Shown: piece by piece, positions 6,426 through 43,515 of the stretch
Numbering within the stretch: position 1 is the first letter of the stretch
Layout of the letters: the number at the start of each line of letters is the position of its first letter
Source of the DNA: Patescibacteria group bacterium
Lineage (GTDB): Bacteria; Patescibacteriota; WWE3; 0-14-0-20-40-13
NCBI GenBank assembly: GCA_018896215.1
Contig: JAHINB010000013.1
Span: 17,946 to 81,945 of the forward strand
DNA: 64,000 bases
Direction of reading: 5' to 3'
The notes under the pieces: model-generated
Database searches by the model: none
Told to the model about the DNA's origin: nothing
The model's input: only the letters and a program-made list of their open reading frames with translations
Program-made: the position numbers and the translations under genes

Positions 6426-7697
6426 CTAACTGTTTTTACGGGTGACACCCCTAAAGTGGTGTTTTGGGGTGTCACCCGAAAATCCAAATATCTTCTTTGC
6501 TTTATTAATCCCACTTATTAGTGCATCTATATCCTCTTTTGTATTATAGATATACAAACTTACCCTAACTGAACTTGGTATATCCAACGCCGTGTGTAGT
6601 GGCATAGCGCAGTGGTGACCCGACCTAACCGCAACCCCAACCGAGTCTAAAACACTGGCTAAATCATGGGAGTGCACCCCTGGCAGGTTAAACGCCACAA
6701 TTCCAACCCCGTTTTCTGCTTTTTGGTTCCCGTATAGTAATAGCCCTAATCGCCCTAACATTTCTAATAAGTATTCTGTATTCCCCCCCACCTTCCCCCT
6801 CAACTTCTCCAACCCATAGGAGTTTAGGTAATCCACTGCCACCCCAAGCCCAATCACTCCCGCGATATTTGGCGTTCCGGCTTCAAATTTATTGGGAACA
6901 ATATCCCAAACAGCGTGATCTTGATAAACTTCAGTAATCATACCCCCGCCAAATTTAACAGGCTCAAGTGTTTTTAGTAATTCTCGTTTTCCCCAAAGCA
7001 CTCCAACTCCAGTTGGCCCTAGCATTTTATGCGCCGAAAAAGCATAAAAGTCGCATCCTAAAGATTGCACATTAACTGGCAGGTGCCCCACCGCCTGCGC
7101 CCCATCGACTACTACTAAACAATTGGGATTTGTCGTTTTGACAAGTTTGACTAAATCTTTAATCTTAATAATTTCTCCAGTGACATTGGAAGCGTGGGTA
7201 ATTGCTAAAGCATCCACTTTTTGAGAGAGTATTTTTTTAGCTTCAGAATAATCTAGTAAACCGCCTTTAGTAACCGGAATATAGATCAGCTGACAATTTT
7301 TTTGTGTTGCCAACTGTTGCCAAGGTACAAGGTTGGAGTGATGTTCTAGTTCCGATAAAACAATTGTTGATTCTTCTTTTAATATTTGACCAACTAATTG
7401 AGAAGCCGTATTTAATGATTCTGTTGCTCCACTGGTAAAGATCACTTCTTCGGGAACAACTGCTCCAATTAAACCTGCAACCTTTTTTCTAGCTTCTTCA
7501 AACAATAAAGTTGATTCCTCGCTTAATGTATGAATTCCTCGATGGATATTGGAATTATGTTTTTGATAATAGTTAACAACGGCATCAATAACTTGCTGTG
7601 GCTTTTGCGTTGTAGCAGCATTGTCCAAATAAGCAAGTTTGTGACCGTTGATTTTGCGATTTAAAATTCTGAAATCCTTTTTGGTATTAATTAACAT
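6426..7697 (-). CDS. sufS: cysteine desulfurase SufS (class V aminotransferase)
   Basis: PLP-lysine SAHK motif and the group-II active-site loop RSGHHCA. The last ~17 codons (FSGDTPKHHFRGVTRKNS) and the stop codon are supplied by a palindromic repeat element (see repeats). Confidence 0.85.
   Translation of the reverse strand: MLINTKKDFRILNRKINGHKLAYLDNAATTQKPQQVIDAVVNYYQKHNSNIHRGIHTLSEESTLLFEEARKKVAGLIGAVVPEEVIFTSGATESLNTASQLVGQILKEESTIVLSELEHHSNLVPWQQLATQKNCQLIYIPVTKGGLLDYSEAKKILSQKVDALAITHASNVTGEIIKIKDLVKLVKTTNPNCLVVVDGAQAVGHLPVNVQSLGCDFYAFSAHKMLGPTGVGVLWGKRELLKTLEPVKFGGGMITEVYQDHAVWDIVPNKFEAGTPNIAGVIGLGVAVDYLNSYGLEKLRGKVGGNTEYLLEMLGRLGLLLYGNQKAENGVGIVAFNLPGVHSHDLASVLDSVGVAVRSGHHCAMPLHTALDIPSSVRVSLYIYNTKEDIDALISGINKAKKIFGFSGDTPKHHFRGVTRKNS
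6439..6478. repeat. IR-A palindromic element copy 1 (CGGGTGACACCCC ... GGGGTGTCACCCG)
   Basis: 13-nt inverted arms separated by 14 nt, at the sufS 3' end / sufU 5' junction. It translates to ..SGDTP..GVTRK.. Confidence 0.65.
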
Positions 7698-8191: not shown

Positions 8192-8202
8192 TTTCGTCTT
8201 TT

Positions 8203-8252
8203 CGGGAGACTCCCCAAAAACAGTTTCTAATGCCTTTAAGGGGAGTCTCCCG
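8203..8252. repeat. IR-B palindromic element (CGGGAGACTCCCC ... GGGGAGTCTCCCG)
   Basis: 13-nt inverted arms separated by 24 nt, in the divergent sufD-ybaK intergenic region. The arm differs from IR-A at 2 positions. Confidence 0.6.
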
Positions 8253-8337
8253 GAAAAATTCTAAGATTTTGTTCCCCTTTTATCATAGATAACCGTCTAT
8301 ATATTAACATGAATTTTTACTATGGTAAACTTACACA

Positions 8338-10911: not shown

Positions 10912-11175
10912 CTAATCAGCCACGGGACATTTGCACTCACCACAACCACAAGTACATTGAGCATCGTAATAGACTTCCCTTCCTTTTTTAATTCTTTTAA
11001 GTAAACCCGTTTTTGCAAGTTCCATTAAATGGTACGAAACCGTAGGTTGTGTCAATTTAAAATGGGACACAACCTCGGATACTGTTTTAGATTTTCCGCT
11101 TTGCACAAATTCGTAGATTTTAGATCTTGAATTATCCGAAATAGCTTTAAAGCAAGCCAAGCATTTTTTATTCAT
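10912..11175 (-). CDS. ArsR/SmtB-family winged-helix regulator with C-terminal Cys cluster (SufR-like)
   Basis: HTH SEVVSHFKLTQPTVSYHLMELAKTGLL plus a C-terminal CTCGCGECKC. It is the first gene of the suf cluster. Confidence 0.55.
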   Translation of the reverse strand: MNKKCLACFKAISDNSRSKIYEFVQSGKSKTVSEVVSHFKLTQPTVSYHLMELAKTGLLKRIKKGREVYYDAQCTCGCGECKCPVAD

Positions 11176-11270
11176 AACAAGATTAAAGAAAAATATTTCT
11201 ATTAATTTCCCCGACTAATGTCGGGGGCGTTACATATTTCCGAGCGCGGAAATCTATATTTTTTAAATAG
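11173..11270. repeat. copy of the dispersed structured leader repeat ('E-family')
   Basis: CATAACAAGATTAAAGAA.. then hairpin CCCCGAC-taat-GTCGGGG, then GCGTTACATA, then hairpin TTTCC-gagcgc-GGAAA, then TCTAT. It abuts the start codon of the ArsR-like gene and is near-identical in architecture to the copies inside the ribosomal operon. Confidence 0.6.
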
Positions 11271-12336: not shown

Positions 12337-12426
12337 AGAAAATGTTTCCTTGCGTCCTGAGCCTGTCGAAGGACAATTCCTATTCTATCCTTTTGCCTCC
12401 ACATTTTCCAGACCCGCTTTTCTTGT

Positions 12427-12450
12427 CATAGGGTCTGACCCTTAAACAAA
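12427..12450. repeat. GGGTC-N-GACCC boundary palindrome, inverted-orientation copy
   Basis: TTTGTTTAAGGGTCAGACCCTATG on the minus strand matches TTTGTCTAAGGGTCAGACCCTAAAACA at 15.86 and 18.76 kb. Confidence 0.55.
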
Positions 12451-12495
12451 ATATTCCTCATTTTAAAAAAGTCCTTCTGTTGTTATACTAAAAGT

Positions 12496-13002
12496 ATGTT
12501 AACAAACCAAATGCATCCCGATCAAAAAGTTGGAGTTTTTGTGGATGTCTCCAACATGTACTACAGCGCCAAAAATCTTCACAATTCAAAGGTAGACTTT
12601 GGGCAGGTTTTACAAATGGTACTGGGCAAGCGCAAACTCATCCGCGCCTTTGCCTATGTTATAAGAGCCAACATTGAACAGGAAAAGACTTTTTTTGAAG
12701 CGCTAGAAAAACGCGGCTTCGAAGTTCGTATTAAAGACTTGCAAGTTTTTTTGGGTGGCGAAAAAAAAGGTGATTGGGATGTAGGGCTTTGCATGGATGC
12801 TGTAAGACTCATCCCCAAAATAGACGCTCTAGTTTTAATTTCGGGAGATGGGGATTATACCGATTTGTTGGATTATGCCCGTTCGCAAGGAGTAAGGTGC
12901 GAAGTGGCTTCGTTTGGACGCAACACCTCTGGAAAATTAATCGAGCGCGCCGACAGTTTTTTTGATTTAGACTACTTTGCCAAAAATATCCTTTTAGCCT
13001 AG
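12496..13002 (+). CDS. NYN-domain (LabA-like, PIN-like) protein
   Basis: VGVFVDVSNMYYS...GDWDVGLCMDA...LISGDGDYTDL are the acidic-residue signature of NYN/DUF88. Confidence 0.65.
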   Translation: MLTNQMHPDQKVGVFVDVSNMYYSAKNLHNSKVDFGQVLQMVLGKRKLIRAFAYVIRANIEQEKTFFEALEKRGFEVRIKDLQVFLGGEKKGDWDVGLCMDAVRLIPKIDALVLISGDGDYTDLLDYARSQGVRCEVASFGRNTSGKLIERADSFFDLDYFAKNILLA

Positions 13003-13023
13003 AGTATTTTTTAAATAGCTAAG

Positions 13024-14778
13024 ATGAGAAGCTTTTACTTCCCAAAACAACTTATCATTCGGGCAGGGATTTTAGCTTTTGCCTTTACGGCAATTTCGTT
13101 TTTTGCTTACCACCTTTCGTTTTTAAACAGAGTAATTCCCAATGTTTACTTGGACGGTAAACGCATCAGCGGGATATCAATTGTTAAATTGCAACAAGAT
13201 CTTGGGTATCTTGATACTTATGATCCCGTAATTTCTTTTAGGGACGAGCCCTCAAAACAAGATTTTGTCGTTAAGGCATCGGATATTGGACTTTATTATA
13301 ATTCTCAAGAAACTATTAAAAAAGCGTTTTTACTTGGCAGAACCAGCAATTTTATTCAAGATAACTTAACAAAGTTTAACCTACTATTTAAGGGATATAA
13401 CCTGACCCCAGAGTATCTTGTAAATCAAGATCTTTTGGATTTAAAAATAAGCCAAATCCAAACTAAAGTAGAATCCCCTTTTTACAACGCTTACTTCTAC
13501 ATCTCTAATAACAAGCTCGAGATAGAGAAAGAAGTTTCGGGATTACGGCTTAACAAAAACAAATTAAAAGCTAGGATTTTAGAAAAATATTTAAGTTTTA
13601 ATTTTGTAAACGAGCCTCTTCCTATGGAACAATTTACTCCGGAGGTAACAACAGAAAACTTAACCCCTGTGAAAGAATTCGTCCAAAATATAGTTTTTAA
13701 TCCACCAGCGCTATTTTTTGAGAAAAAAGTTTATAAATTAACTCCCGAAAACATTTTAAAATCTGTTTTTCTAAAAATGGAATCGGGGGCAAACAAAGCC
13801 ACCGTTACCGTAAACACCGAAACGCTCTCCCCCATAATTGCAACAATTGCCGAAGAAATAAACACCCCACCTAAAGGAGAGATATTTTTAATGGAAAACG
13901 GCAAGGTAAGTAGCTTTAGACCAGCATCCAATGGCGTCGTAATTGATGAAGAAAAACTTTATAAAGATTTGGCAAGCGCGATTTTAGTAGATGACCCCAA
14001 GGCTAAAACTGTTACCATTCCGGTTCGCGAAACCAAAGTTTTAGCTAATAATGAATACGGTATAAAAGAATTGCTGGGAGAAGGCATATCTAAATTCGAA
14101 GGGTCTATAAGTGGCAGGGTTTTTAATATTGCTCTTGCTTCATCCAACCTCAACGGAACCTTAATTCCCCCTGGAGAGACATTCTCTTTTAATAAATCGG
14201 TAGGCGAAATTGATGCTACCCACGGGTTTACTTCTGCCTACATTATTTCCAAAGGGAGAACAGTACTGGGAGAAGGTGGCGGGGTTTGTCAAGTTTCTAC
14301 CACGCTTTTTCGCGCTGTCTTAAATTCGGGACTTCCAGTAGTTACTCGAGCCGCTCACGCCTATAGAGTTTCATATTACGAACAGGACGCTCCGGTAGGT
14401 CTTGATGCCACAATTTATCAGCCCACAGTGGATTTTAAATTTAAGAATGACACCGCAGGCTATATTTTGTTAACTGCTTCCGTTGACCAGAAAAACCTGA
14501 CTATGAATTTTAAGATTTATGGAACAAGTGATGGGAGAACCATAGAAATTACTAAGCCGATTATTACTTCCCAAACTCCGCCACCGCCAGCAGTTTATGA
14601 GGAAACTGATACATTACTTGTGGGACAAACTAAGCAGGTGGATTGGTCGGCTTGGGGAGCAAGTGTCAAATTTAGTCGTAAAGTGGTAAAAAATGAAAAA
14701 ATAATAATTGACGAAGAGTATATTAGCAATTATAGACCTTGGCGAGCTGTGTACTTGGTTGGTACCAAAGAACCTTAA
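13024..14778 (+). CDS. VanW-family protein (N-terminal TM anchor)
   Basis: 584 aa. C-terminal VanW core GFTSAYIISKGRTVLGEGGGVCQVSTTLFRAV...YYEQDAPVGLDATIY. Confidence 0.7.
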   Translation: MRSFYFPKQLIIRAGILAFAFTAISFFAYHLSFLNRVIPNVYLDGKRISGISIVKLQQDLGYLDTYDPVISFRDEPSKQDFVVKASDIGLYYNSQETIKKAFLLGRTSNFIQDNLTKFNLLFKGYNLTPEYLVNQDLLDLKISQIQTKVESPFYNAYFYISNNKLEIEKEVSGLRLNKNKLKARILEKYLSFNFVNEPLPMEQFTPEVTTENLTPVKEFVQNIVFNPPALFFEKKVYKLTPENILKSVFLKMESGANKATVTVNTETLSPIIATIAEEINTPPKGEIFLMENGKVSSFRPASNGVVIDEEKLYKDLASAILVDDPKAKTVTIPVRETKVLANNEYGIKELLGEGISKFEGSISGRVFNIALASSNLNGTLIPPGETFSFNKSVGEIDATHGFTSAYIISKGRTVLGEGGGVCQVSTTLFRAVLNSGLPVVTRAAHAYRVSYYEQDAPVGLDATIYQPTVDFKFKNDTAGYILLTASVDQKNLTMNFKIYGTSDGRTIEITKPIITSQTPPPPAVYEETDTLLVGQTKQVDWSAWGASVKFSRKVVKNEKIIIDEEYISNYRPWRAVYLVGTKEP

Positions 14779-14782
14779 TCCC

Positions 14783-15196
14783 TTATCTTTCTTCGTAAAT
14801 TACCTCAATAACTACAGATAACTCCCCTCCCCCACTAGTTAAAATAATCGACAAGGTTTTATTGTCTTTTTTGTATACAAGAGGTTTTTCTATTGTGTAT
14901 CCCAAATTTCTCGCCTGCGAAATATAATAATTGGCAATTTTGGATAAAGGATCGTAAGACTCAAACAAAAGATCGTAGCCTTGGAGTGTTTTGTTTTGGC
15001 TGATAAATAAGGCTCCGGGATAAACAATGAAATCTTTAGGCAATGAGCTTAAAAACCCAGTTGAAACCCCGGCAACTTTGCTGGTTCCCGGTGTAATAAC
15101 AGTTTCGATGTTGGTAAATTTTTGGTAAAGGATAAAAGAAAAAACAAAGACGATAAATCCTGCAATTAACTTTTTAAATGCTACTTTCATTGCCAC
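14783..15196 (-). CDS. hypothetical membrane-anchored protein
   Basis: 137 aa with one N-terminal TM helix (LIAGFIVFVFSFILY). Confidence 0.35.
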   Translation of the reverse strand: MAMKVAFKKLIAGFIVFVFSFILYQKFTNIETVITPGTSKVAGVSTGFLSSLPKDFIVYPGALFISQNKTLQGYDLLFESYDPLSKIANYYISQARNLGYTIEKPLVYKKDNKTLSIILTSGGGELSVVIEVIYEER

Positions 15197-15217
15197 TAGT
15201 ATATCACTTTTGCCTTT

Positions 15218-15240
15218 TTAGGATCCGACCCTAAAACAGG
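15218..15240. repeat. variant boundary palindrome TTAGGATCCGACCCTAAAACAGG
   Basis: Same TAAAACA tail and GACCC half-site as the GGGTCAGACCC copies. It supplies the stop codon (TTA on minus) of the 15218 gene. Confidence 0.45.
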
Positions 15241-15523
15241 AGTACAAATCTAGCAAATACTCTGCAATAACTTTGTCTTCGAATTTGCTATTGATGATTT
15301 CCCACGCTTTTTCATACAATTCCGGTGACACTGTTTTTACTTTCTCCACAAGAGAAGTTGCCAATCCCCTTTCGCCTTTCGCCATGTAATAGGCGCTACG
15401 ATAAATATTCCCCAACGCATCTGCTTGTAGATTTTTCTCACGGGAGACTCCTTTCTCACGGGTGACACCCCATAAAGCGTTTGTATTTTGTACCGGGGTG
15501 TCACCCGAATAGATTTCTTTCAT
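15218..15523 (-). CDS. hypothetical protein whose 5' coding region is built from palindromic repeat elements
   Basis: Start taken at the ATG that forms an ATGA overlap with the upstream gene stop (MKEIYSGDTP...). Codons 5-25 are encoded by the IR-A and IR-B repeats. Confidence 0.3.
   Translation of the reverse strand: MKEIYSGDTPVQNTNALWGVTREKGVSREKNLQADALGNIYRSAYYMAKGERGLATSLVEKVKTVSPELYEKAWEIINSKFEDKVIAEYLLDLYSCFRVGS
15441..15510. repeat. IR-A palindromic element copy 2, with adjacent partial IR-B arm
   Basis: CGGGAGACTCC (15441-15451) followed by CGGGTGACACCCC (15459-15471), a 23-nt spacer, then GGGGTGTCACCCG (15495-15507). Copy 1 is at 6439-6478. Confidence 0.65.
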
Positions 15524-15855
15524 TTTTGATTCCAAATGACTTCTTTGACAACTTTGATTAATTTCTCTCTTATCACTGGATCCAAAATATCCATTGAAGC
15601 GTTTCCTTGACTTGCACGCAGATTTAAAACAGCTAAAGTTTCTACAGATTTTACTTTGAGGTCAACCGCTCCACCCCAAATATCTCTGGGATGAGATCCT
15701 TCCCCCACCAAAATATCCTCCCCATCACTATGGAGTTCGCAACCTGCAACAAGCCATTTATTTTCTATATCAACAGTAACTTTAAAATAACTCCCAAACT
15801 CTTTCTCTAGCTCCAAAAGATCTTTGTTTGTAATTTTTTCTTTAAATAATTTCAT
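15520..15855 (-). CDS. hypothetical protein
   Basis: 111-aa ORF with no recognisable motif. Confidence 0.35.
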   Translation of the reverse strand: MKLFKEKITNKDLLELEKEFGSYFKVTVDIENKWLVAGCELHSDGEDILVGEGSHPRDIWGGAVDLKVKSVETLAVLNLRASQGNASMDILDPVIREKLIKVVKEVIWNQK

Positions 15856-15861
15856 TTTGTC

Positions 15862-15882
15862 TAAGGGTCAGACCCTAAAACA
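15862..15882. repeat. boundary palindrome TAAGGGTCAGACCCTAAAACA
   Basis: Identical 21-mer at 18764-18784. A 5-1-5 inverted repeat GGGTC-A-GACCC. Confidence 0.65.
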
Positions 15883-15888
15883 GATCGA

Positions 15889-15924
15889 AAAGTATCTGGC
15901 AATATCTGGCAACATCAGGCAATG
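15889..15924. repeat. phased 10-bp direct repeats (GTATCTGGCA / ATATCTGGCA / ACATCAGGCA) ending in ATG
   Basis: Three 10-nt units in register. A near-identical array at 17741-17785 ends in the Fic start codon. Confidence 0.6.
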
Positions 15925-15927
15925 TTG

Positions 15928-16347
15928 CTAAAACTCCAAAACTTCCGGTGGATTTGTGGCGTGATTGCTATACTTTGTCCAACTAGGAACGAACCTGAGA
16001 ATAGTTCCATCTGCAACATAATCTTTCCACTCGGGATGAACTTGCAACATATAATCTCTTTCTTTGGCGGCTCCTGAATCATCTACTACTTGTGTGATAT
16101 CCCCATCAATTTGTACCGTCGGATTGTCGTTTTCGCAGCCTACGACAACAGAAGCTTTTGAATTAACTTTTATATTAGCCATTTTTCTTGTTGTAGCATC
16201 GGTAGAAAACAAAAGAGAAAAGTCGTCTTTAGCAACATAAGCCATAGTTGCAGCCTGTGTCTTTCCGGACGCATCGGCGGTAGCTAAAACACACAACTCT
16301 CTGCTTTTTAAAAAAGCCAAAACTCCTTCTTTATCCATACTTCTCAC
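15928..16347 (-). CDS. pyridoxamine 5'-phosphate oxidase-like FMN-binding protein
   Basis: 139 aa, split-barrel PNPOx-like (LCVLATADASGKTQAATMAYV....VVVGCENDNPTVQIDGDI). Confidence 0.55.
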   Translation of the reverse strand: MRSMDKEGVLAFLKSRELCVLATADASGKTQAATMAYVAKDDFSLLFSTDATTRKMANIKVNSKASVVVGCENDNPTVQIDGDITQVVDDSGAAKERDYMLQVHPEWKDYVADGTILRFVPSWTKYSNHATNPPEVLEF

Positions 16348-16359
16348 CCCCTTAAATAG

Positions 16360-16410
16360 GTTCCCACGCGCAAGCGCGCGGTACTATATTCGTTACAAAA
16401 GTATCCGCAT
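16360..16410. repeat. partial E-family-like element (hairpin + GTTACAAAAG)
   Basis: CACGCGCAAGCGCGCGG hairpin followed by CGTTACAAAAG, the same grammar as TTTCGCGAAGCGAAAGCGTTACAAG in the ribosomal-operon spacers. Followed by two GC hairpins at 16429-16497. Confidence 0.3.
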
Positions 16411-16532
16411 TTGCTGGAGCAAATTAACGCCCCGCCGCAGGCGGGGAATTTATCGGAAGATTCATCCCCGCCCAGAACTGCGTAGCTGTTGGCGGGGTCT
16501 TCTCTAAATCTTGTTATAAAAAATATCTGTCC

Positions 16533-17510
16533 CTAAATCCTAATAAGCTTTTCTAACCAAGGAATGTGTTCGTTTTTCCTTTTCCACCAAAGATCTTCCC
16601 AAATATAATGTACCGCGAGCTGTTTATATTTTCCATACCTCTCAAAGTATTTGAGAAGTTTTTCTACAGGAACGGGATTTTCGGGATCTTTATTAAAAAA
16701 TAATTTGGAATAAATTTTTTGCTCCCAAGGTGATATATGGTTAAAAAAATCCCAACGATGAAAAACATCAAACAAAAGATACCAAACTGTAGCTGGTCCG
16801 ACTCCGTAAAGTCTCAACAACTCCTTCATTTGTGTATCTCGATCTTTTTTACGCAACTCCATTTCATCAATTTCATCAATGAGACCTTGGAAAAAGCAAT
16901 CATCTGTTCTTTTTATTGACTTAGCACGATAACCCACTTTTAAAGCTCGCAACTCATCTTCGGTGACATCCTTCAAATCCCCCGGCTCCCAAAAACACCA
17001 GAGTTTCTTGCCAGCGAATTCGAGGGATGTTCCGTATTTTTCAAATAAAACCTGCATCATTTGGATTGAACGACGGACGGTGCAATTTTGTAAAACAATG
17101 CTGATGATTAAGTATTCGTAAAGGGAATCTTGATGACCAGGGCGCATACCGTAAAGCCGCTTGATAACTGGTCCCACAAACCTGTCCTTTGAGAGGTGTT
17201 TATAAAAGTCAGTGAGGTTCAGATTTAGATTATACCTATATTTGACTTCATCGATAAATTGTTCAACAAATTCTCCAGACAGTCTTTCGGTGGAATAGAT
17301 CTCTACTTTTATTTTTGGTTTATCAATAGAACTAACACCTTTGAATACCACTCCTAAATTTTTTCCAAGATAACGAAAGGTTTGCCATCTAACATCAGGC
17401 TCCCAGTAATTATCACCTGATGAGAAATGGGCCGGCTTATGAAAAGTGGCATCAAAATTAAATGGGGCTGTCGGATCTATCTCAATTGTATATTTTTTGT
17501 CTAATATCAT
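16533..17510 (-). CDS. HhH-GPD superfamily DNA glycosylase (AlkA/Ogg-like)
   Basis: Helix-hairpin-helix LRLYGVGPATVWYLLF followed by a conserved Asp region. 325 aa. Confidence 0.55.
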   Translation of the reverse strand: MILDKKYTIEIDPTAPFNFDATFHKPAHFSSGDNYWEPDVRWQTFRYLGKNLGVVFKGVSSIDKPKIKVEIYSTERLSGEFVEQFIDEVKYRYNLNLNLTDFYKHLSKDRFVGPVIKRLYGMRPGHQDSLYEYLIISIVLQNCTVRRSIQMMQVLFEKYGTSLEFAGKKLWCFWEPGDLKDVTEDELRALKVGYRAKSIKRTDDCFFQGLIDEIDEMELRKKDRDTQMKELLRLYGVGPATVWYLLFDVFHRWDFFNHISPWEQKIYSKLFFNKDPENPVPVEKLLKYFERYGKYKQLAVHYIWEDLWWKRKNEHIPWLEKLIRI

Positions 17511-17740
17511 AATTGCTTGGGGTGTCCGAGGATCTGAATCCCTTTAAAATCCTTTAGTGTGATTATATACTATCCCATGGAACATATTGCAATAATGAAA
17601 AAACAATGGGGGCTAATACCAAAAATCTTATCTGGAGAAAAAACTGGGTACGGTGTGCAGTGCGCTTGGATAACAACAGAAAACACCTCGCGCCTTAGGA
17701 TCATTTAGAATTTAGATATTAGGATTTAGAATTTCTTCTA

Positions 17741-17785
17741 AAGTATCTGGCAATATCTGGCAACATCTGGTAACATTAGGCAATG
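17741..17785. repeat. phased 10-bp direct repeats (x4) ending in the Fic ATG
   Basis: GTATCTGGCA-ATATCTGGCA-ACATCTGGTA-ACATTAGGCA-ATG, 10-nt periodicity. Confidence 0.6.
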
Positions 17786-18766
17786 GAAATTCCTCCAAAA
17801 TTCGCGATTAATTCCAAAGTAGCTGACCTAATAGCGTTAATTGACTCCAACCGCCTCTTTATTAATTCCAAAAACATTCCCCCAATCGTACAACAGAATA
17901 TCGACCGCGTTAGTCTTTTAAAAAGTGCTTTATATTCCGCAAAAATTGAGGGCAACGAACTCCAAGAACACAACTTTAATTTTTATCCCAAAGATCAAAA
18001 GAAACTAGAAGTTTTAAACATCCAAAAAGCCATAAATTACATCAATAGCGAGATTACAGGTACAAAACCAGTGATTTTAGAAACTATTCTTACACTGCAA
18101 AAGATATCTATGGAAAACATAGTTCCAAATGCAGGAAAAATTAGAAGCGACAATTTGGCTATTTTTAATTCCGCTGGAGTTGCAGTTTATTTTGCCCCTC
18201 CCCCATCGGAACTTTCTATTTTTTTAGAGAAATTGATAAACTATATAAACTCATCAAGTGCAGAATCACCAATTATTGTTGCCTTAATAGCTCATCTAAT
18301 TCTAGAAAAAATCCACCCCTTTCAAGACGGCAATGGTAGGGTTGGAAGACTCTTAATTTATGCGGTTCTAAAAGCCAAAAGCTACAATTTTGGAGTCCCT
18401 GTTGTGTTAGAAGAAGAAATAAACAAAAGACGAGACGAATATTACTATCACCTAGACCAAGGATACAAAAATGTAGAGGACTATTTGTTTTTTATGCTCG
18501 AAATCTTTTATAACCAAACAGAAACTGTTAAAACCCAGCTAACTTATATTCCACAAGAAAACGATGTGGTTTTGTCTTTGGCGCCAAGGCAAGGAGAAAT
18601 TTACAACATTATTAAAGACCATCAACTGGTATCTCTTGATTTTATTCATAGGAGATTCGTAACAGTTCCAGCAAGAACCCTTCGTTACGATCTAAAGAAA
18701 TTACAAGAAAAGGGTTTGATCAACAAAACATCTTCCACTCGAGGAGCTTTCTACAGAGTTGTCTAA
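17783..18766 (+). CDS. Fic/Doc-family protein (Fido, adenylyltransferase-like)
   Basis: Canonical Fic motif HPFQDGNGRVGRLL. The C-terminus is winged-helix-like. Its stop TAA is the first 3 nt of the boundary palindrome. Confidence 0.8.
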   Translation: MEIPPKFAINSKVADLIALIDSNRLFINSKNIPPIVQQNIDRVSLLKSALYSAKIEGNELQEHNFNFYPKDQKKLEVLNIQKAINYINSEITGTKPVILETILTLQKISMENIVPNAGKIRSDNLAIFNSAGVAVYFAPPPSELSIFLEKLINYINSSSAESPIIVALIAHLILEKIHPFQDGNGRVGRLLIYAVLKAKSYNFGVPVVLEEEINKRRDEYYYHLDQGYKNVEDYLFFMLEIFYNQTETVKTQLTYIPQENDVVLSLAPRQGEIYNIIKDHQLVSLDFIHRRFVTVPARTLRYDLKKLQEKGLINKTSSTRGAFYRVV

Positions 18767-18784
18767 GGGTCAGACCCTAAAACA
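18764..18784. repeat. boundary palindrome TAAGGGTCAGACCCTAAAACA
   Basis: Exact copy of 15862-15882. Confidence 0.65.
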
Positions 18785-18858
18785 ACTACAACAAGATTCA
18801 TGAAATTCCCATCCAAAATTTTTTGCCAAAGGCAAAAGCGTTGCAAGAACTTTAGTTC

Positions 18859-19563
18859 TTATTTTCTCCCAGTTTTAAGTTTTCTTTCGGTTTCGCGGAT
18901 AGCGATTTTGGGCAATACTTCTCGATTTGTATTTATATATTCCACAACCTTTTCCCAATGATGCTTGATAAGACTTCTTAAAATCCACGAAACTGCCTTA
19001 GTAATTAAAATGTCTTTTTCCGATTTTAACTTTTCCAAATTCTCAAAAGCTAGTTTTGCCAGTCGTTCATCATTGCTTTCTCTAACTGACCTAGTAAGCA
19101 ACACCAAACTTGCTCTTCTTCTAGAAATATTTTTATCCCTCGCCATCTTTGTAATTGTCTTTTCCCAAACTGACCAGTCACCCAAAATATCCTCTGCTCC
19201 AAAAGTGCTTTGACACAAACTGTCCACCTCACACCATCCGCTAAGATTTGCAAGCCACTCAAAAACCCTTTTTGGAGTAAAGAGATCTTTAAATTCTTTT
19301 TTTCTGGAAATTAAAGTTGTACCAAATCTCCGTTCGTTGGAGGATTCCCCAACATTAAGAGCGTTCAATAACTCCAAAAATTCTTCTTTCGTGATGTTGG
19401 GATGCTTTTTTACAAATTCTTTAGCAATTTGCTTTTGAACCGCTGTTTTTAGGTGATAAAACTTATTATCGGTTCCGAGATACTTTGGCAAATCAAACTT
19501 TGACGACCCCCTATCCAACCTTTTAAATTCCTCGATGATTTCTTTTTGCAATTTGTTAATCAT
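18859..19563 (-). CDS. DNA alkylation repair protein (AlkD/AlkC-like HEAT-repeat)
   Basis: 234 aa with WCEVDSL, ISRRRASLVLL and KAVSWILRSL, as in the DNA_alkylation family. Confidence 0.5.
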   Translation of the reverse strand: MINKLQKEIIEEFKRLDRGSSKFDLPKYLGTDNKFYHLKTAVQKQIAKEFVKKHPNITKEEFLELLNALNVGESSNERRFGTTLISRKKEFKDLFTPKRVFEWLANLSGWCEVDSLCQSTFGAEDILGDWSVWEKTITKMARDKNISRRRASLVLLTRSVRESNDERLAKLAFENLEKLKSEKDILITKAVSWILRSLIKHHWEKVVEYINTNREVLPKIAIRETERKLKTGRK

Positions 19564-19652: not shown

Positions 19653-20855
19653 CTATTTGATTAAACCACCCCAAAGATATTCTGTAAATCTCACTGACTT
19701 TTCCTTACCAATAATTCTACTTTTAGAAATCTCTAGGTTTCGAACTCTCCGCTTGAGAGTTTCGTTGTCTGCTTCGGTTGGTGTTTCTTTAACTTCAAAA
19801 GCTAAAGGTTTGTCTTTAAAGTCTAATATAAAATCCACCTCACCATCGCGATTGGAAAAGTAAGATAAATTTCCATAAAAAGATAATTGATGACATACGG
19901 TGTTTTCAAACTTACTTCCACTAGACAGATCCGCGTTTACATTAGCTATTCCCGTATCGACAAAATATGATTTCTGTAATAGTCTATTTTGTATGTCTGG
20001 GGAACGAGAGAAAGCAGAAACTGTGCGTATTAGATAGGTTTGCTTTAAAAATTCAATGTAATTATCGACGGTAATTCTACTTAAACCGGTAATGTTCGCT
20101 AGTTCACTCACATTTAATCTACTTCCAATTCGTGATGCCAATAATTTGATTACTTTTCTTAAATCATTAGTCGATTTAAAGTCAGATAAAGACTGCACAT
20201 CGAGATTAATATACGAGCTAAAAATTTCTTCCAGTAATTGTTTTTTTCGTTCTACATCTGCTGTTAAAACCACTTTTGGCAAACCTCCGTATTCAATATA
20301 CTGTTCGTAGTAATTTTGAAGCATTTTAAAAGTATCAGTTGGAAAATCCACATCAATTGAAAGTTTTTCGGGAAGTAGATATTCTACTCCCTGAAAATCC
20401 AGAAATTCCTGAAAACTTAAAGGAAACATTTCGTATATTATTTTTCGACCAGCCATAGATTCAGAGAACCTGTTTTTGATATAGAATGAGCTAGATCCTG
20501 TAAGAAAAAATTTAATTTGGTAATGATCATACAAATACTTAACTACACTGGGAAGATTTGGTAACAATTGAATTTCATCTAAAGCAATGTAAAGTTGCTC
20601 TTTGGTGGATAGTCCTCTAGTTTGAAACTCGTGGATCAAAGAATCATAGTTTGTCGCCTCGAATAATTCCCGATCAACAAGGTTTTCCAAATCAAAATAA
20701 TGTTTGTTTTTAGATGGAATATTGTCAAGTAGCCAATGGAGAGTTGTAGTTTTTCCTACCTGACGAGGACCTGTAATAACTACAATCTCTTGGGTAGCTA
20801 TCTCGGGCAACAATTTCTTCCAAATCTGTCTATTTTGCATACTATTACTATACAA
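19653..20855 (-). CDS. AAA+ ATPase (AAA_14 + DUF4143 architecture)
   Basis: Walker A ITGPRQVGKTT and Walker B-like LDEIQ. The C-terminal region matches the DUF4143-type layout. Confidence 0.6.
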   Translation of the reverse strand: MYSNSMQNRQIWKKLLPEIATQEIVVITGPRQVGKTTTLHWLLDNIPSKNKHYFDLENLVDRELFEATNYDSLIHEFQTRGLSTKEQLYIALDEIQLLPNLPSVVKYLYDHYQIKFFLTGSSSFYIKNRFSESMAGRKIIYEMFPLSFQEFLDFQGVEYLLPEKLSIDVDFPTDTFKMLQNYYEQYIEYGGLPKVVLTADVERKKQLLEEIFSSYINLDVQSLSDFKSTNDLRKVIKLLASRIGSRLNVSELANITGLSRITVDNYIEFLKQTYLIRTVSAFSRSPDIQNRLLQKSYFVDTGIANVNADLSSGSKFENTVCHQLSFYGNLSYFSNRDGEVDFILDFKDKPLAFEVKETPTEADNETLKRRVRNLEISKSRIIGKEKSVRFTEYLWGGLIK

Positions 20856-26299: not shown

Positions 26300-28860
26300 G
26301 CATCTTAAAATCGCTTTTTGATCTAAACAAAAAGAAAATTCAAAAACTTTACCCTTTGGTTCGTGAAATAAACCAGCAATGGGAAAATGTTAAAGATTGG
26401 AAAAATGAAGATTTTGCAAACCAGACAAGCAAGTTCCAAGACGACTTATTCAAGATTAAGGATTTAGCCCAAAAAGAAAAGTATCTCGAAAGCATTCTGC
26501 CTTTAGCTTTTGCTATGGTCAAGGAAGCAACTAAAAGAACCCAGGATAAAATTTTGCATGACGAGCAGTTGCTGGCGGGAATTGTCTTAAATAGCAAAGC
26601 TATAGCCGAACAAAAAACTGGTGAGGGAAAAACCAACACAGCAGTTCTAGCTTTGTATTTAAACTCACTTACAAAATTAGGCTGTCATTTGGTTACCCCA
26701 AACGACTATCTTTCCCGTCACGGCGCCGGATGGATGGGACCAATTTACAACCTGCTGGGCGTTTCGGTTTCGGTAATTATTCACGAAGCGTCTTATATCT
26801 ATGACCCAAGCTTTGAGAACGAAAAATTCTTAGACGAATACGCCAAAAACTTAAAACCTGTATCGCGAAAAGAGGCCTACGCCTGCAACATAACTTATGG
26901 AACCAACAACGAATTTGGTTTTGACTATTTGCGGGACAATATGGCAAATACATTATTAGGAATTGTACAAACTAATCCCCAAGGTGACGAAGGGTACCAC
27001 AATTTTGCCGTGGTGGATGAGGTTGACTCTTTGTTGATTGATGAAGCCAGAACTCCTCTTATTATCTCCGCCCCCGCCGAGGATTTAGCCTCCCGTTATA
27101 AGGAATTCTCTCAAATTGCCAACAAACTTGTCATTAAAACCGACTGCGAAATAGATGAAAAATTTAAAACTGCCACGCTTACCGATCTGGGAATTAGAAA
27201 AGTAGAAAGGTTTTTGGGTGTAGATAACTTGTACGAAAAGGATTTTGAAAGTATCCATCTAATCGAAAACGCCATTAGAGCAAACCATCTATATTTAAAA
27301 GACCGGGATTATGTAGTTCGCGAAGGCGAAATAATCATTGTAGATGAATTTACAGGAAGACTTATGCCGGGACGCCGATGGAGCGAGGGCTTGCACCAAG
27401 CAATTGAGGCAAAAGAAAGCGTTTCAATTCAAAAGGAGTCTAGAACGCTAGCTACTATTTCGTTTCAAAACTATTTTAGAATGTACCACAAGTTGGCTGG
27501 AATGACAGGAACCGCCGAAACCGAAGCCGAGGAATTTTACAAAATTTACGGGTTGGATGTTGTTGTTGTCCCCACTAATCTCCCAATTAAACGAGAGGAT
27601 TATCCCGACTTTGTTTATAAAACTAAAACCGCCAAATACCACGCTGTGGTGGCAGAAATTGAGGAGGCGACAAACCGTGGCCAACCAGTTTTGGTAGGTA
27701 CCACTTCCATCGAAAATAACGAGCTTTTATCTCGTTTGCTTTCTCATAAAGGGATAAAACACGAGGTGTTAAATGCCAAACAACACGAAAAAGAGGCCCA
27801 GATTATCTCTCAGGCGGGAAGAATTGGGGCGGTAACTCTTGCCACCAACATGGCAGGTCGTGGGGTGGACATTAAGCTTGGCGGAGATCCAACAACGACA
27901 GAGGAAAAACAGCAAGTCGAGACTCTTGGTGGACTCTTTGTAATTGGAACCGAACGACATGAAGCAAGACGGATTGACAACCAGCTCCGTGGGCGGGCGG
28001 GCAGGCAAGGAGAGTCGGGAGCTTCGCGATTTTTTGTTTCCTTGCAGGATGATTTAATGAGAATTTTTGGCGGGGCGCAAATTGAAGGTCTGATGACCCG
28101 TTTTAAAATGGACGAAAACACTCCGCTGGAATCGGGGATTGTTTCCAAAGCCATCGAAAACTCACAAAAAAAGGTCGAGGGTTTTAATTTTGACGCCCGA
28201 AAACGAGTTGTAGAATACGATGATGTGATGAATGTGCAAAGGAGTGCCATATACAAAATTCGCAAAAAGGTTCTCCTCCTAGAAAAATCCCTAACATCTC
28301 CAACAACCACTCTAGAGGAATTTGCTAACTGGTACACCAATAAAATTACCCCTTACTATGCAGAATTTACAACCATTTGGAGTAAGTACCAAAAACAATT
28401 CGGTCCGATGTGGCTAGAGGTGGTAAAACAAGAAACCTTGCGGGTAATTGATTTTTTGTGGATGGAACACTTGGATGGCATGGATGACCTGCGAGAAGGA
28501 ATTGGACTGCGCGGTTATGCTCAAATTGACCCTATTGTGGCATACAAAAAAGAGGGTCGGGAGATGTTCGAAAAGCTTTTGGCTAATATTTGGGGTACCC
28601 TGGGCGAGCGCTTTTCCAAAATTAATATCACATCAGAAGTCTCCCCCTCACCACAATCTACCCAATCCCCCCTATCTTCTCAAAGTTTAGTTTATCAACA
28701 CGCCTCTCCAGAACTCGGCGTTGCCGACGAAGCGCGCGAAATAGCCCAAGCTCAATCCCAAAAACCCAAAGACGAGGAAGGTCAAAAAATTGGGCGCAAT
28801 GACTTATGCCCCTGTGGAAGTGGCAAAAAATACAAACGCTGTCACGGCAAGCAGAAATAG
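26296..28860 (+). CDS. secA: preprotein translocase ATPase SecA
   Basis: 854 aa with DEAD-like motor motifs and the C-terminal zinc finger CPCGSGKKYKRCHG. Confidence 0.95.
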   Translation: MSILKSLFDLNKKKIQKLYPLVREINQQWENVKDWKNEDFANQTSKFQDDLFKIKDLAQKEKYLESILPLAFAMVKEATKRTQDKILHDEQLLAGIVLNSKAIAEQKTGEGKTNTAVLALYLNSLTKLGCHLVTPNDYLSRHGAGWMGPIYNLLGVSVSVIIHEASYIYDPSFENEKFLDEYAKNLKPVSRKEAYACNITYGTNNEFGFDYLRDNMANTLLGIVQTNPQGDEGYHNFAVVDEVDSLLIDEARTPLIISAPAEDLASRYKEFSQIANKLVIKTDCEIDEKFKTATLTDLGIRKVERFLGVDNLYEKDFESIHLIENAIRANHLYLKDRDYVVREGEIIIVDEFTGRLMPGRRWSEGLHQAIEAKESVSIQKESRTLATISFQNYFRMYHKLAGMTGTAETEAEEFYKIYGLDVVVVPTNLPIKREDYPDFVYKTKTAKYHAVVAEIEEATNRGQPVLVGTTSIENNELLSRLLSHKGIKHEVLNAKQHEKEAQIISQAGRIGAVTLATNMAGRGVDIKLGGDPTTTEEKQQVETLGGLFVIGTERHEARRIDNQLRGRAGRQGESGASRFFVSLQDDLMRIFGGAQIEGLMTRFKMDENTPLESGIVSKAIENSQKKVEGFNFDARKRVVEYDDVMNVQRSAIYKIRKKVLLLEKSLTSPTTTLEEFANWYTNKITPYYAEFTTIWSKYQKQFGPMWLEVVKQETLRVIDFLWMEHLDGMDDLREGIGLRGYAQIDPIVAYKKEGREMFEKLLANIWGTLGERFSKINITSEVSPSPQSTQSPLSSQSLVYQHASPELGVADEAREIAQAQSQKPKDEEGQKIGRNDLCPCGSGKKYKRCHGKQK

Positions 28861-28887
28861 GGATTATCCCAAATTTGGGATAATCCC
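28860..28887. terminator. perfect 28-nt palindrome between convergent secA and L,D-transpeptidase genes (bidirectional terminator candidate)
   Basis: GGGATTATCCCAAA|TTTGGGATAATCCC. Confidence 0.45.
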
Positions 28888-28898
28888 TAATCTTGTCT

Positions 28899-33435: not shown

Positions 33436-33552
33436 TTATCCCTGCCTTTGCTTATGCTTGGGATTTGCCTTGCAAATAACCCGCAAAACATTCTCCCTTT
33501 TAATAATTTTGCACTTATTGCAAATTTTTTTGATTGATGATCTAACTTTCAT
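33436..33552 (-). CDS. rpmJ: 50S ribosomal protein L36
   Basis: 38-aa ORF below the ORF-track threshold: [38 protein letters not shown] (C..C..C..H zinc ribbon), in the expected infA-rpmJ-rpsM position. Confidence 0.75.
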
Positions 33553-33617
33553 AACAAGATTCAAGAAAAAATACTAAAATATTTCGCGAAGCGAAAGCGT
33601 TACAAGCTTCGCTTATA
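33553..33617. repeat. E-family structured intercistronic repeat (infA-rpmJ spacer)
   Basis: AACAAGATTCAAGAAAAAATACTAAAATATTTCGCG-AAGCGAAA-GCGTTACAAGCTTCGCTTATATC. Near-identical to the rplF-rplR spacer copy. Confidence 0.65.
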
Positions 33618-33839
33618 TCATTTGATCCTAAAGACTATCCTCCCCTTGGTAGTATCGTATTTAGTCATTTCTACCCTAACCGTATCACCAGGTAAAATCC
33701 TAATATGATGCAGTCGCATCTTTCCCGAGACATGCGCCAAAATTGGCAACTCGTCCGTTTCAAATTTTACCTTAAACATGGTATTAGGTAGGGATTCCAA
33801 AACCACGCCTTCTCGAACTTCTATATCCTCTTTTTGCAT
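33618..33839 (-). CDS. infA: translation initiation factor IF-1
   Basis: S1-like OB fold ([28 protein letters not shown]). Start at the internal Met (MQKEDIEV). Confidence 0.85.
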
Positions 33840-35161: not shown

Positions 35162-35220
35162 GAGTTGATTTTACCTCACAAACCGCTATTTACGAAACGG
35201 TATTTGCGCACCTATCAATT

Positions 35221-35249
35221 CGGGTACTACCCGAATCGGGTAGTACCCG
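35221..35249. repeat. perfect 29-nt palindrome
   Basis: CGGGTACTACCCGA-A-TCGGGTAGTACCCG, within the GC-rich insert between adk and the ybaB-like gene. Confidence 0.6.
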
Positions 35250-35454
35250 ATAATATCTTGCCACTAAAGGGTTCTTTTGAATACAGTGTTTCGTGTTGTT
35301 ATAGCAAGGAAAATTTACTATCAATTGCAACTGGATGCAGATGGAGTGGGGCACCTCTTAAACAACAAAAAGAAAAAGAAAAGGCGCTGGAGTCTCTCAT
35401 GATACATCAAGAGAAAATACCCCCAGCACCTTCCGCAACTTCCCCCCCACCGCA

Positions 35455-38409: not shown

Positions 38410-38757
38410 CTAGAAAACTAATTTATTTTCCCTCGCCCCTTCGGCAACCGCTTTTACTCTACCATGATACTTATAACCCGAACGATCAAAAACCACTTTC
38501 TTAATCTTGGCATCAAGCGCTTTTTTTGCTACAGCTTTACCTACTTCGTAAGCCCTTTTGGTCTTTTTAGTTTTTGCATCCATCTTTAGATCGGAGCTTG
38601 CAACCAAAGTTACACCTTTTTCATCGTTTACTATTTGAGCATAAATATGCTTATGGGACCTAAAAACGCTTAGTCTAGGTCGTTCTTTGGTTCCTACTAC
38701 TTTTGCTCTAATTTTAGCTTTTATCCTCTCGCGAGGGCTTTTGTGTGTCACTTTCAT
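38410..38757 (-). CDS. rplR: 50S ribosomal protein L18
   Basis: [21 protein letters not shown]. Confidence 0.85.
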
Positions 38758-38909
38758 ATATTTATATACAAGCTTCGCTTATAACAAGATTTAAGAACAA
38801 ATACTAAAATGTTTCGCGTCAGCGAAAGCGTTACAAGCTCTGCTTATAGCGAAAGCGTTACAAGCTCTGCTTATAGCGAAAGCGTTACAAGCTCTGCTTA
38901 TAATGATCT
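38758..38909. repeat. E-family intercistronic repeat region (rplF-rplR spacer) including the tandem array
   Basis: CAAGCTTCGCTTATAACAAGATTTAAGAACAAATACTAAAATGTTTCGCGTC, then 3x27-bp units, then AATGATCTC. Confidence 0.7.
38821..38901. repeat. perfect tandem repeat, 3 x 27 bp (AGCGAAAGCGTTACAAGCTCTGCTTAT)
   Basis: Three identical contiguous units read directly from the sequence. Non-coding, between rplF stop and rplR start. Confidence 0.9.
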
Positions 38910-43167: not shown

Positions 43168-43515
43168 CTATTTTGCTCCCGCTTTAGGTGACGGCTTTGG
43201 CGCAGTTGGAGAAATACCCTCCGGTGCTCTCTTGGCAGAACTTTCTTTTTTAAGACCTTTTCTGCTGTGAGTTCTAAAGGTCCTGGTTAAAGAAAACTCC
43301 CCTAACTTGTGCCCAACCATAGACTCGGTGACAAACACCCCAATAAAGGTTTTTCCGTTATGTACTTCGAAATTTAACCCCACCATCTCGGGACTTATGG
43401 TAGATCTTCTACTCCATGTTTTTATAGCCCCACGATTTAATGTAGCTTTCGCTTTTTTTACTTTTTCTTGCAATTTTGGGTCAATGTAGGGACCCTTTTT
43501 TTGTGATCTGCTCAT
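43168..43515 (-). CDS. rpsS: 30S ribosomal protein S19
   Basis: Start taken at the ATG ([15 protein letters not shown], cf. the canonical S19 N-terminus). The longer TTG-initiated ORF runs into the upstream repeat element. Confidence 0.85.

Follow-up and report, generated by a model that had tools for sequence, protein, structure and literature searches.

The DNA examined here is a stretch of 64,000 nucleotides (nt) from a Patescibacteria group bacterium (GTDB lineage WWE3; contig JAHINB010000013.1, positions 17,946 to 81,945), referred to hereafter as the window. Two kinds of repeated motif lie between its positions 12,423 and 18,785: an array of phased 10-bp direct repeats, which ends in the start codon of a gene for a Fic protein, and an imperfect palindrome. 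[quoted passage not shown] That the palindromes are relatives of the repetitive extragenic palindromic (REP) elements, static at present, has about an even chance of being right, and the combined account, in which the array and the palindromes are independent of each other, is favored somewhat more than that. A first-pass annotation, made from the letters alone, had pointed out both motifs, and both proved to be real and far above chance: the family of the palindromic 21-mer TAAGGGTCAGACCCTAAAACA gives 4 matches in the window against 0.01 expected, and GGYAA-N5-GGYAA-N5-GGYAA gives 3 against 0.09, with no site besides those in the two arrays.

The phased array and the winged helix

The array is composed of 10-bp direct repeats, (ATCTGGYAAY)n, and is found at two places in the window:

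17740..17785, + strand: candidate promoter-operator array of Fic; AAAGT, then the units ATCTGGCAAT, ATCTGGCAAC, ATCTGGTAAC and ATTAGGCA, then ATG
15889..15924, + strand: orphan array; AAAGT, then units 1, 2 and 4, then ATG

The last of the four units in the former array ends in the Fic ATG at 17783, and GGYAA is placed at −34, −24, −14 and −4 relative to this start codon. The unit at −14 is GGTAA and belongs to an extended −10 element, TGGTAACAT (17768–17776), 6 nt upstream of the ATG. Since the extended −10 lies only 6 nt before the start codon, a leaderless Fic mRNA is implied. The geometry TGnTAnnnT, ending 6–7 nt upstream of ATG, is found at 5 of the 71 open reading frames (ORFs) of the window against about 0.16 expected, namely at the start codons 8338, 12496 (NYN), 15190 (the 135-aa gene), 17783 (Fic) and 22122, and this implies that leaderless mRNAs from extended −10 promoters may be normal and frequent in this organism.

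Both the sequence and the register of the array are kept in relatives. A phased GGYAA array ending at the ATG was found in all five Fic orthologues that were fetched by protein similarity (47–55% identity). Two of them, L010 with five units and L009 with four, both ending in the Fic ATG, encode proteins 52–55% identical to that of the window, and the remaining three (L104, L105 and L106) encode proteins of 47–49% identity. The 22-mer ATCTGGCAATATCTGGCAACAT is identical in both arrays of the window, in L009 and in L010. GGYAA stands at −14, −24 and −34 in most of the Patescibacteria loci, and when the Patescibacteria-type Fic loci are aligned at their start codons, GGTAA is the final full unit ahead of the ATG in 16 of 17, giving TGGTAAYAT, then 6–10 nt, then ATG. 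In Microgenomates, the group of the Patescibacteria/CPR from which the Fic relatives of this organism come, GGTAA stands at −14 and the extended −10 (TGGTAAYAT) 6 nt ahead of the ATG. In the gut-type loci, the array lies within a TTGACT-N17-TAATAT promoter and a Shine-Dalgarno leader is present; in L060, for example, it forms the spacer and the −10 of this promoter. The array thus overlaps the core promoter.

A DNA-first scan of metagenome contigs with the query ATCTGGYAAYATCTGGYAAYAT yielded 80 loci. A Fic homologue was detected by tblastn directly downstream of the array in 19 of these, and a profile of the C-terminal domain added loci that tblastn had not provided, with Fic proteins of 24% identity, AlbA_2+HATPase_c_4 proteins and 71-aa wHTH proteins. 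In 22 loci, a wHTH gene, or a gene of the same AlbA_2 type cut by the contig end, starts at most about 200 nt downstream of the array. Counting both genes and gene remnants, 26 of the 80 loci link the array to this wHTH domain. The array-linked genes are of several types: Fic proteins of 40–55% identity, Fic proteins of 24% identity (one on a human-gut contig), AlbA_2+HATPase_c_4+wHTH proteins, and the stand-alone 71-aa wHTH. Four loci, representing three distinct cases (L025/L033, L096 and L051), have the array fused to the last 20–40 wHTH codons, which indicates a recurrent internal deletion of the Fic or other effector part in three independent cases. Since the array precedes Fic, AlbA_2/HATPase_c_4 and stand-alone wHTH genes, it follows the winged helix, and the winged helix, not the Fic domain, is the common denominator of the array-bearing genes. 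The first-pass annotation had taken the 10-nt phasing as a sign of protein binding; on the strength of this conservation upstream of genes for Fic-wHTH proteins that are 24–55% identical, the array does behave as a protein-binding operator would. A scan of a viral collection gave 3 array matches, with no Fic homologue after the array (tblastn) in any of them. In another locus, L090 (1–200), at least 10 ATCTGGCAAT units stand at the contig end and are followed by two tandem GAAAGGGGTCAGACGT units; the GGGTCAGAC within the latter resembles a half-site of the palindrome, probably by coincidence.

The presumed binder of the array is the winged helix of the Fic protein itself. This protein (327 aa) is a Fic AMP-transferase of class II and of the same type as SoFic of Shewanella oneidensis and CccR of Yersinia pseudotuberculosis. 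Its catalytic motif, HxFx(D/E)GNGRxxR, is present as HPFQDGNGRVGR (residues 178–189), and its inhibitory motif, (S/T)xxxE(G/N), as S52-A-K-I-E56-G57 (SAKIEG). Residues H178, F180, G183, N184, G185, R186 and R189 of the former are invariant among 34 homologues, as are S52, E56, G57 and N58 around the latter. Pfam detects Fic (7.7e-17) and, at residues 269–318, HTH_DeoR and HTH_12. In the structural model (predicted local distance difference test score, pLDDT, 89.9), the winged helix covers approximately residues 262–327, with helices at 268–280, 285–291 and 297–309 and strands at 313–315 and 323–326 (pLDDT 84–90 there); R290, R291, F292, R298, T299, R301, Y302, D303 and other residues of this domain are invariant in the same set of homologues. 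Full-length Foldseek alignments of the model were obtained with 7cb8, 7xux, 4rgl, 3eqx and 8cil. The full-length fold match 7xux, deposited as 'FIC domain containing protein' and released within days of the CccR paper, is presumably CccR.

The orphan array is situated in the 72-nt gap between the PNPOx-like and DUF5674 genes (both on the − strand). The GGTAA unit, from which the −10 is formed, is missing; the sequence there, TGGCAACAT, has a C where the −10 is most conserved. Because the −10-bearing unit is missing, this array is probably inactive as a promoter. No wHTH gene follows it; only a 51-codon ORF antisense to PNPOx is found there. It is either a short duplicate or all that is left of a wHTH gene since lost; the deletion remnants, which abound at other loci, have kept the 3′ end of the gene, however. 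A remaining piece of Fic 5′ coding sequence was also sought beside it; the shared CTCCAAAA consists of PNPOx C-terminal codons on the other strand, and the similarity is probably due to chance. For the array as such, a sigma-54 site (TGGCA-N5-TGGCA) was considered on the sequence alone and set aside, since neither the spacing nor the −12 element seems to fit.

Proposed autorepression by the Fic protein and known operators

In the proposed mechanism, several wHTH domains would settle on consecutive GGYAA units along the same face of the helix, and the bound domains would occlude RNA polymerase. A potentially toxic Fic enzyme would thus be kept under negative autoregulation, as has been shown for CccR and suggested for SoFic. 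We infer binding and repression of its own promoter by the Fic protein because the array is found together with the wHTH domain and reaches across the core promoter, and because CccR and SoFic bind their own promoters.

CccR represses its own promoter via its C-terminal HTH, and its operator, AGATAATCAT-N26-ATGATAATCT, is located near the −35 and −10 boxes (PMC9755527). Like the Fic protein of the window, CccR is a class II protein with the inhibitory motif S-x-x-x-E-G and, at its C-terminus, a DNA-binding domain, and its 10-bp operator boxes overlap the −35/−10 region of its own gene. The two proteins differ in that their sequence identity is 17–20% and that the Fic gene of the window has no type VI secretion system context. 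The box AGATAATCAT and the reverse-complemented unit AGATATTGCC agree at 6 of 10 positions, a likeness too weak for use.

[quoted passage not shown] The PADLOC model SoFic matches residues 35–324, nearly the full length, of the Fic protein of the window (2.5e-45), and 3eqx, 3zcn and 3zec are fold matches, but the score for the NCBIfam equivalog is 49.9 against a cut-off of 550, so that the protein is no orthologue of SoFic. Whereas own-promoter binding by SoFic has been located only to the 100-bp region, GGYAA is a candidate operator for the protein of the window; the gene of the window is also a syntenic Microgenomates backbone gene rather than an obvious island gene.

Iterons and the operators of the OmpR-PhoB type are direct repeats as well, spaced by one turn of the helix, and winged-helix proteins bind to them. 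The array shares with them the direct repeats and the one-turn phasing but differs in lying in the promoter of the winged-helix gene itself and in having neither a replication initiator gene nor origin features beside it: its neighbors are PNPOx, the OGG-like glycosylase, an ASCH remnant and Fic.

An alternative to autorepression is that the array is only a promoter, made of tandem −10-like units or a phased upstream element, or is the site of some other factor, so that the Fic wHTH would not be its binder. Each unit does resemble an extended −10 (TGGYAAYAT), and the promoter-proximal unit has the leaderless-promoter geometry that other genes of this genome use. However, the other leaderless promoters of the window have no such array, the array accompanies the wHTH onto non-Fic proteins, and the units upstream of the −10 are its best conserved part; in non-Patescibacteria genomes, moreover, the array overlaps a canonical −35/−10 promoter with a Shine-Dalgarno leader. 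We therefore regard this alternative as improbable. Several points also weigh against autorepression itself. The operator of CccR is a pair of inverted 10-bp boxes 26 bp apart and not a set of direct repeats (PMC9755527), and such a widely spaced inverted repeat was not found at Fic, where 3–5 direct 10-bp repeats abut a leaderless start codon instead. About 54 of the 80 scan loci are without a wHTH gene, and many of these are microsatellite-like, GC-richer or at contig ends.

A bolder and rather unlikely extension is that the GGYAA array and the winged helix constitute a portable autoregulatory module, which would be joined to different dangerous effectors, namely Fic AMP-transferases and AlbA_2/HATPase_c_4 proteins, in Patescibacteria and beyond, and which would recognize tandem direct repeats, unlike the CccR operator. 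Orphan operators could then place neighboring genes under Fic control: the array at 15889–15924 could subject the DUF5674 operon, or antisense transcription of PNPOx/OGG, to Fic occupancy. If so, the Fic protein would be a local transcription factor besides being an enzyme.

Fic-wHTH proteins are widespread, with 1,807 InterPro entries of this architecture (bioRxiv 10.64898/2026.07.09.737422), and include toxins, translation regulators (EF-Tu AMPylation) and anti-phage genes, but their DNA targets have been defined for one protein alone, CccR. The candidate operator offered here, GGYAA at 10-bp spacing over the −10, is a precise one and applies to a broad clade of bacteria that have not been cultured. 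That Fic-wHTH proteins can regulate their own genes was known before. As far as the literature was searched, the direct-repeat operator, its fusion with a leaderless promoter and its portability with the winged helix have not been described.

The palindromes and their sister families

The 21-mer TAAGGGTCAGACCCTAAAACA occurs exactly at 15862–15882 and 18764–18784 (+ strand), as a variant with three mismatches at 15218–15238, and reverse-complemented with two mismatches at 12424–12444. These positions agree with the first-pass annotation, except that the inverted copy had been placed at 12427. The full palindrome is an imperfect dyad of 26–29 nt, with the 27-bp consensus TTGTyWWAGGGTCWGACCCTWWrACAA and the core AGGGTCWGACCCT (AGGGTC-W-GACCCT). 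Its four copies are as follows:

12423..12449: copy A; TTGTCATAGGGTCTGACCCTTAAACAA, with the central base in the opposite polarity; divergent GIY-YIG/NYN intergenic region
15213..15238: copy B; degenerate, TTAGGATCCGACCCTAAAACA
15857..15883: copy C; 26 nt identical to copy D
18759..18785: copy D; TTGTCTAAGGGTCAGACCCTAAAACAA; between the convergent Fic and DNA_alkylation genes

All of them are intergenic or overlap only the final codons of an ORF. Copy A lies just upstream of the NYN promoter (TGTTATACT, 12481–12489), 52 nt upstream of the NYN gene, and copy B, about 27 nt upstream of the start of the 135/137-aa gene (ATG at 15190, − strand), covers the −35 part of that gene's promoter (TGATATACT). 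Copy C precedes the DUF5674 start codon (− strand) by 6 nt, and 8 nt separate it from the orphan array; the order palindrome-GATCGAAA-array that had been reported at 15862–15924 is correct. Thus, the palindrome is not always at a gene end, as had been supposed: copy C is beside a start, copy A ends a dubious 62-aa ORF, and copy B ends a 105-aa ORFan. Likewise, of the two stop codons said to be supplied by the palindrome, that of Fic holds, copy D providing the last two Fic codons and the stop TAA (18764–18766), and Fic is the only credible gene so ended. In the strains L002 and L004, the Fic stop is TGA. A coding origin of the palindrome was considered too, copies A, B and C reading C-F-R-V-stop in one frame, and was discarded: no long ORF ends there save the ORFan, which has no homologue.

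The idea that the array and the palindrome are sites of one regulator does not hold. None of the other loci with an array contains the palindrome: in about 580 kb of fetched loci, no array has a copy with two or fewer mismatches beside it. The palindrome belongs to a separate family of GC-core palindromes, which occur far from any array as well. The adjacency at 15862–15924 would then be that of two small elements in one short permissive spacer.

This separate family has sisters. Palindromes of the form GGGxyNy′x′CCC number 15 in the window, against 0.84 expected and a maximum of 4 in 300 simulations, and 15 of the 25 GGGN5CCC sites there are palindromic. In 135 kb of other Patescibacteria loci, there are only 2. 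The 73 kb of this genome that was covered (the window and L115) contains 17 in all families, and the copies of the GGGTCWGACCC family described above number 4 there, all within 6.4 kb. At least five families can be distinguished, and besides GGGTCWGACCC, four are arranged as inverted doublets:

6435..6482 (6440/6467): GGGTGWCACCC doublet; GGGTGACACCC / GGGTGTCACCC; SufS-SufU junction
15436..15508 (15460/15496): GGGTGWCACCC doublet; CGGGTGACACCCC...GGGGTGTCACCCG and a partial CGGGAGACTCC; inside the 105-aa ORFan; −16.1 kcal/mol, z −5.2
8199..8256 (8204/8241): GGGAGWCTCCC doublet; GGGAGACTCCC / GGGAGTCTCCC; divergent intergenic region
28858..28889 (28860/28877): GGGATWATCCC doublet; GGGATTATCCC / GGGATAATCCC; flanking genes convergent; its TAG serves as the SecA stop
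35220..35250 (35222/35238): GGGTASTACCC doublet; GGGTACTACCC / GGGTAGTACCC; perfect 31-bp palindrome in a divergent promoter region

The families recur at distant sites, a further GGGTASTACCC copy being found 1.6 kb past the left end of the window (L115), and no type of spacer is preferred, since they occupy convergent and divergent ones as well as those between co-directional genes. Folding energies of the doublets are −14 to −19 kcal/mol (z −5 to −7). The doublet at 6435–6482 encodes the last 18 or so residues of SufS, which lie past the C-terminus of the solved homologues, and a repeat has reshaped the end of a housekeeping gene here. The SufS frame (window 6426–6482) ends 2 nt before the SufU start. 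An ultra-small, streamlined genome with several REP-like families that reshape gene ends (the SufS end and the Fic and SecA stops) would matter for gene calling in metagenome-assembled genomes (MAGs).

On the REP-like reading, the palindromes would be hairpins that are recognized on single-stranded DNA by an HUH/Y1 transposase of the REP-associated tyrosine transposase (RAYT) or IS200 family, and in this species they appear fixed and immobile. A scan of a genome collection, whose representatives do not include the species of the window, with the 23-mer GTNWWAGGGTCWGACCCTWWNAC gave 7 matches. Most of these were set aside, as they come from unrelated phyla and have fully symmetric flanks, that is, they are ordinary hairpins sharing the core. 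Two contigs of one Desulfovibrio MAG (L013 and L018) carry the same perfect 27-bp palindrome, AAGTTAAAGGGTC(A/T)GACCCTTTAACTT, a dispersed repeat with the same core in an unrelated phylum. The only Microgenomates match (L012, Roizmanbacteria) is a doublet, TAGGGTCAGACCCT-gtgt-TAGGGTCTGACCCTA, directly downstream of a gene whose homologues belong to PF01797 (Y1_Tnp), several being named 'REP-associated tyrosine transposase'. Its nearest homologue, in another Roizmanbacteria MAG (L107) and not chosen by DNA pattern, has TATAAGGTCAGACCTTA on both sides of the gene, and L108, L109 and L110 show the same flanking design with other cores. A scan of a viral collection with the palindrome gave 4 matches.

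A Y1 transposase gene flanked by the palindrome is the defining arrangement of the REP/REPIN-RAYT systems (PMC3337134), and the Y1 genes of L012 and L107, flanked by palindromes of nearly identical core, match this arrangement. The REP elements of P. fluorescens, GGGGGCTTGCCCCC and GGGAGCTTGCTCCC, are, like the palindromes of the window, short imperfect palindromes with a GC core (PMC3337134, PMC3116915). In both cases, the elements are extragenic, several families occur per genome and singlets exist; the sister families resemble REPINs further in their inverted doublets, long hairpins and variable spacers. On the other hand, the units of the window are much shorter, with cores of 11–15 nt and a single-base center, and only a few copies are present in the 73 kb. 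The GGGTCWGACCC family, moreover, forms no inverted doublet (REPIN) in the window, whereas the same core is a doublet in L012. The literature search yielded no report of REP-like repeats or flanked Y1 transposases in Patescibacteria.

The elements of the IS200/IS605 family have similar hairpins at both ends, in the same orientation. Since the hairpins of L107 are in direct orientation, they also match ends of this type, as does L110, in which a Y1 gene again has same-orientation hairpins at both ends. The copies in the window differ from these elements in being isolated 27-bp dyads without a transposase or paired left and right ends.

A number of observations speak against the REP-like reading. 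The flanking hairpins of L107, in direct orientation and with no further copy in 11.8 kb, resemble IS200-type ends more than they do dispersed REPs. No Y1 transposase was found in the 73 kb with 120 Y1 queries. Among 4–5 strains (about 99.4% identical), compared over window 7783–28766 and about 24.6–45.2 kb, neither a presence/absence polymorphism nor an indel of the palindromes, and hence no excision or insertion, was seen. The GGGTCWGACCC copies are singlets that fold weakly (−3.5 to −7.2 kcal/mol, no T-run), and all four copies lie together in a 6.4-kb stretch, three of them with a start codon no more than 75 nt downstream, a pattern that fits a local operator as well.

On this view, a dimeric regulator would control a local regulon made up of the NYN-VanW and DUF5674 operons and the 135-aa gene, and the palindrome would have no transposon origin. 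A dyad of 27 bp is what HTH dimers typically recognize, copies A, B and C are 52, about 27 and 6 nt upstream of start codons, B overlapping a −35 and A lying just upstream of one, the four copies are clustered in 6.4 of the 73 kb, and they are unchanged between strains. Nevertheless, copy D, placed between two convergent genes, has nothing downstream that it could control, the only candidate regulator encoded nearby is the Fic-wHTH protein, which goes with the array, and the L010 orthologue of the 135-aa gene is without the palindrome. Four sister families of the same architecture are found at unrelated places, including the SufS 3′ end, and the same core flanks Y1 transposase genes in relatives. 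This possibility therefore seems unlikely. Less likely still is that the palindromes, especially the doublets, are RNA or DNA hairpins that arose in place under selection, as factor-independent terminators or stabilizers of mRNA ends, with no mobile origin. It would agree with the strong folding of the doublets, with the location of several palindromes at gene 3′ ends or between convergent genes (28858 and 18759), and with the compensatory nature of the differences between families, which suggests selection on pairing. The singlets, however, fold weakly and have no U-tract, and for none of the four copies did the terminator/promoter scan call an intrinsic terminator, which takes a GC-rich stem of 5 or more pairs, a loop of 3 nt or more and then a U-tract. 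Divergent promoter regions contain copies A and B as well as the doublets at 8199 and 35220, the arms are palindromes in themselves, for which a terminator has no need, and such palindromes are nearly absent from the other Patescibacteria loci.

The surrounding region and the place of Fic in it

The window is identical to contig JAKLRK010000007.1 of the MAG GCA_022012835.1, and several other assemblies hold strains about 99.4% identical to it. From left to right, the genes of the region are as follows:

− strand: tRNA-Pro, leftmost
− strand: GIY-YIG
+ strand: NYN
+ strand: VanW
− strand: 135/137-aa gene, ATG at 15190
15218-15535, − strand: 105-aa ORFan
− strand: DUF5674
− strand: PNPOx-like
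− strand: OGG-like HhH-GPD glycosylase
17577..17708, + strand: ASCH remnant, 43 codons
17783..18766, + strand: Fic
− strand: DNA_alkylation, convergent with Fic
19653-20855, − strand: AAA_14/DUF4143, PADLOC PDC-S01
− strand: tRNA-Glu, rightmost

Rfam, at its gathering and E-value thresholds, gave nothing in the window beyond two tRNAs. In the locus L010, whose Fic protein is 55% identical, the order is NYN-VanW-139aa-tRNA_edit-2′,5′-ligase-ASCH-Fic-bPH_2-DNA_alkylation-66aa, and in L009, it is Fic-DNA_alkylation-...-GreA. The neighbors of Fic that are kept in the relatives are thus ASCH on its 5′ side and DNA_alkylation on its 3′ side. The ASCH remnant is the counterpart of the ASCH-like gene that precedes Fic in L010. 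It preserves parts from both termini of the 157-aa L010 protein and has its own TATACT promoter, 5 nt upstream of the ATG; it is a pseudogene formed by internal deletion. Because this remnant precedes Fic as ASCH does in L010, the segment ASCH-array-Fic is ancestral.

The first-pass annotation had also proposed that Fic is mobilized as a cassette, with the array and the palindrome as the recombination sites that bound it. The order array-Fic-palindrome, together with the palindrome-array junction at 15862–15924, does resemble a cassette and an empty or circular junction, and the window and L010 do not carry the same genes between those of the conserved backbone. Yet ASCH, Fic and DNA_alkylation keep their synteny in relatives in which the array is present and the palindrome missing, the array goes with the wHTH gene and the promoter of that gene in every lineage and is part of this promoter, not of a junction, and the gene tables of the region contain no integrase, recombinase or transposase. 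Cassette-level variation between the strains is absent, and neither a related genome with different cargo between the same motifs nor a circular array-gene-palindrome molecule was found. Since its neighbors are syntenic in L010 and L009, Fic is a backbone gene of a variable region and not a cassette, and we consider the cassette model very improbable.

Some further observations concern the same region. The AAA_14/DUF4143 ATPase matches PDC-S01 (3.2e-66), one of PADLOC's candidate defence families, and is encoded two genes away from the gene of the SoFic type; this gives the region a defence-island flavour. About 40 single-nucleotide polymorphisms between the strain of the window and three others are clustered at 18868–19328, within the DNA_alkylation gene, while the surroundings are about 99.4% identical; this looks like a recombination tract that begins just past copy D. 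The 105-aa ORF, which contains a hairpin doublet, is an annotated gene in public records, but no homologue outside its own species was found among 5.8 billion proteins, and it is probably about 320 nt of non-coding DNA downstream of DUF5674.

Finally, two other repeats were found in the window. One is an intergenic module of about 90 nt, which occurs in six copies on the − strand (11150–11260, 33527–33640, 38757–38870, 43496–43610, 45791–45905 and 46218–46330), in the ribosomal-protein/EF-Tu cluster and upstream of an ArsR-like gene. It consists, in order, of a variable hairpin, TATGTAACGC, a hairpin CCCCGAC-loop-GTCGGGG, AAATTAATAGGA, and TTTTCTTGAATCTTGTTAT(A/G) beside the gene start. The second hairpin shows compensatory changes between copies. 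The module has no Rfam match and looks like a terminator combined with a conserved promoter/leader unit. Another is a 27-nt tandem repeat, AGCGAAAGCGTTACAAGCTCTGCTTATA, at 38821–38902 between the L6 and L18 genes. It is present in 3 copies in the window, and other strains have one or two units fewer with differing indel boundaries, this being the only large indel in about 41 kb.

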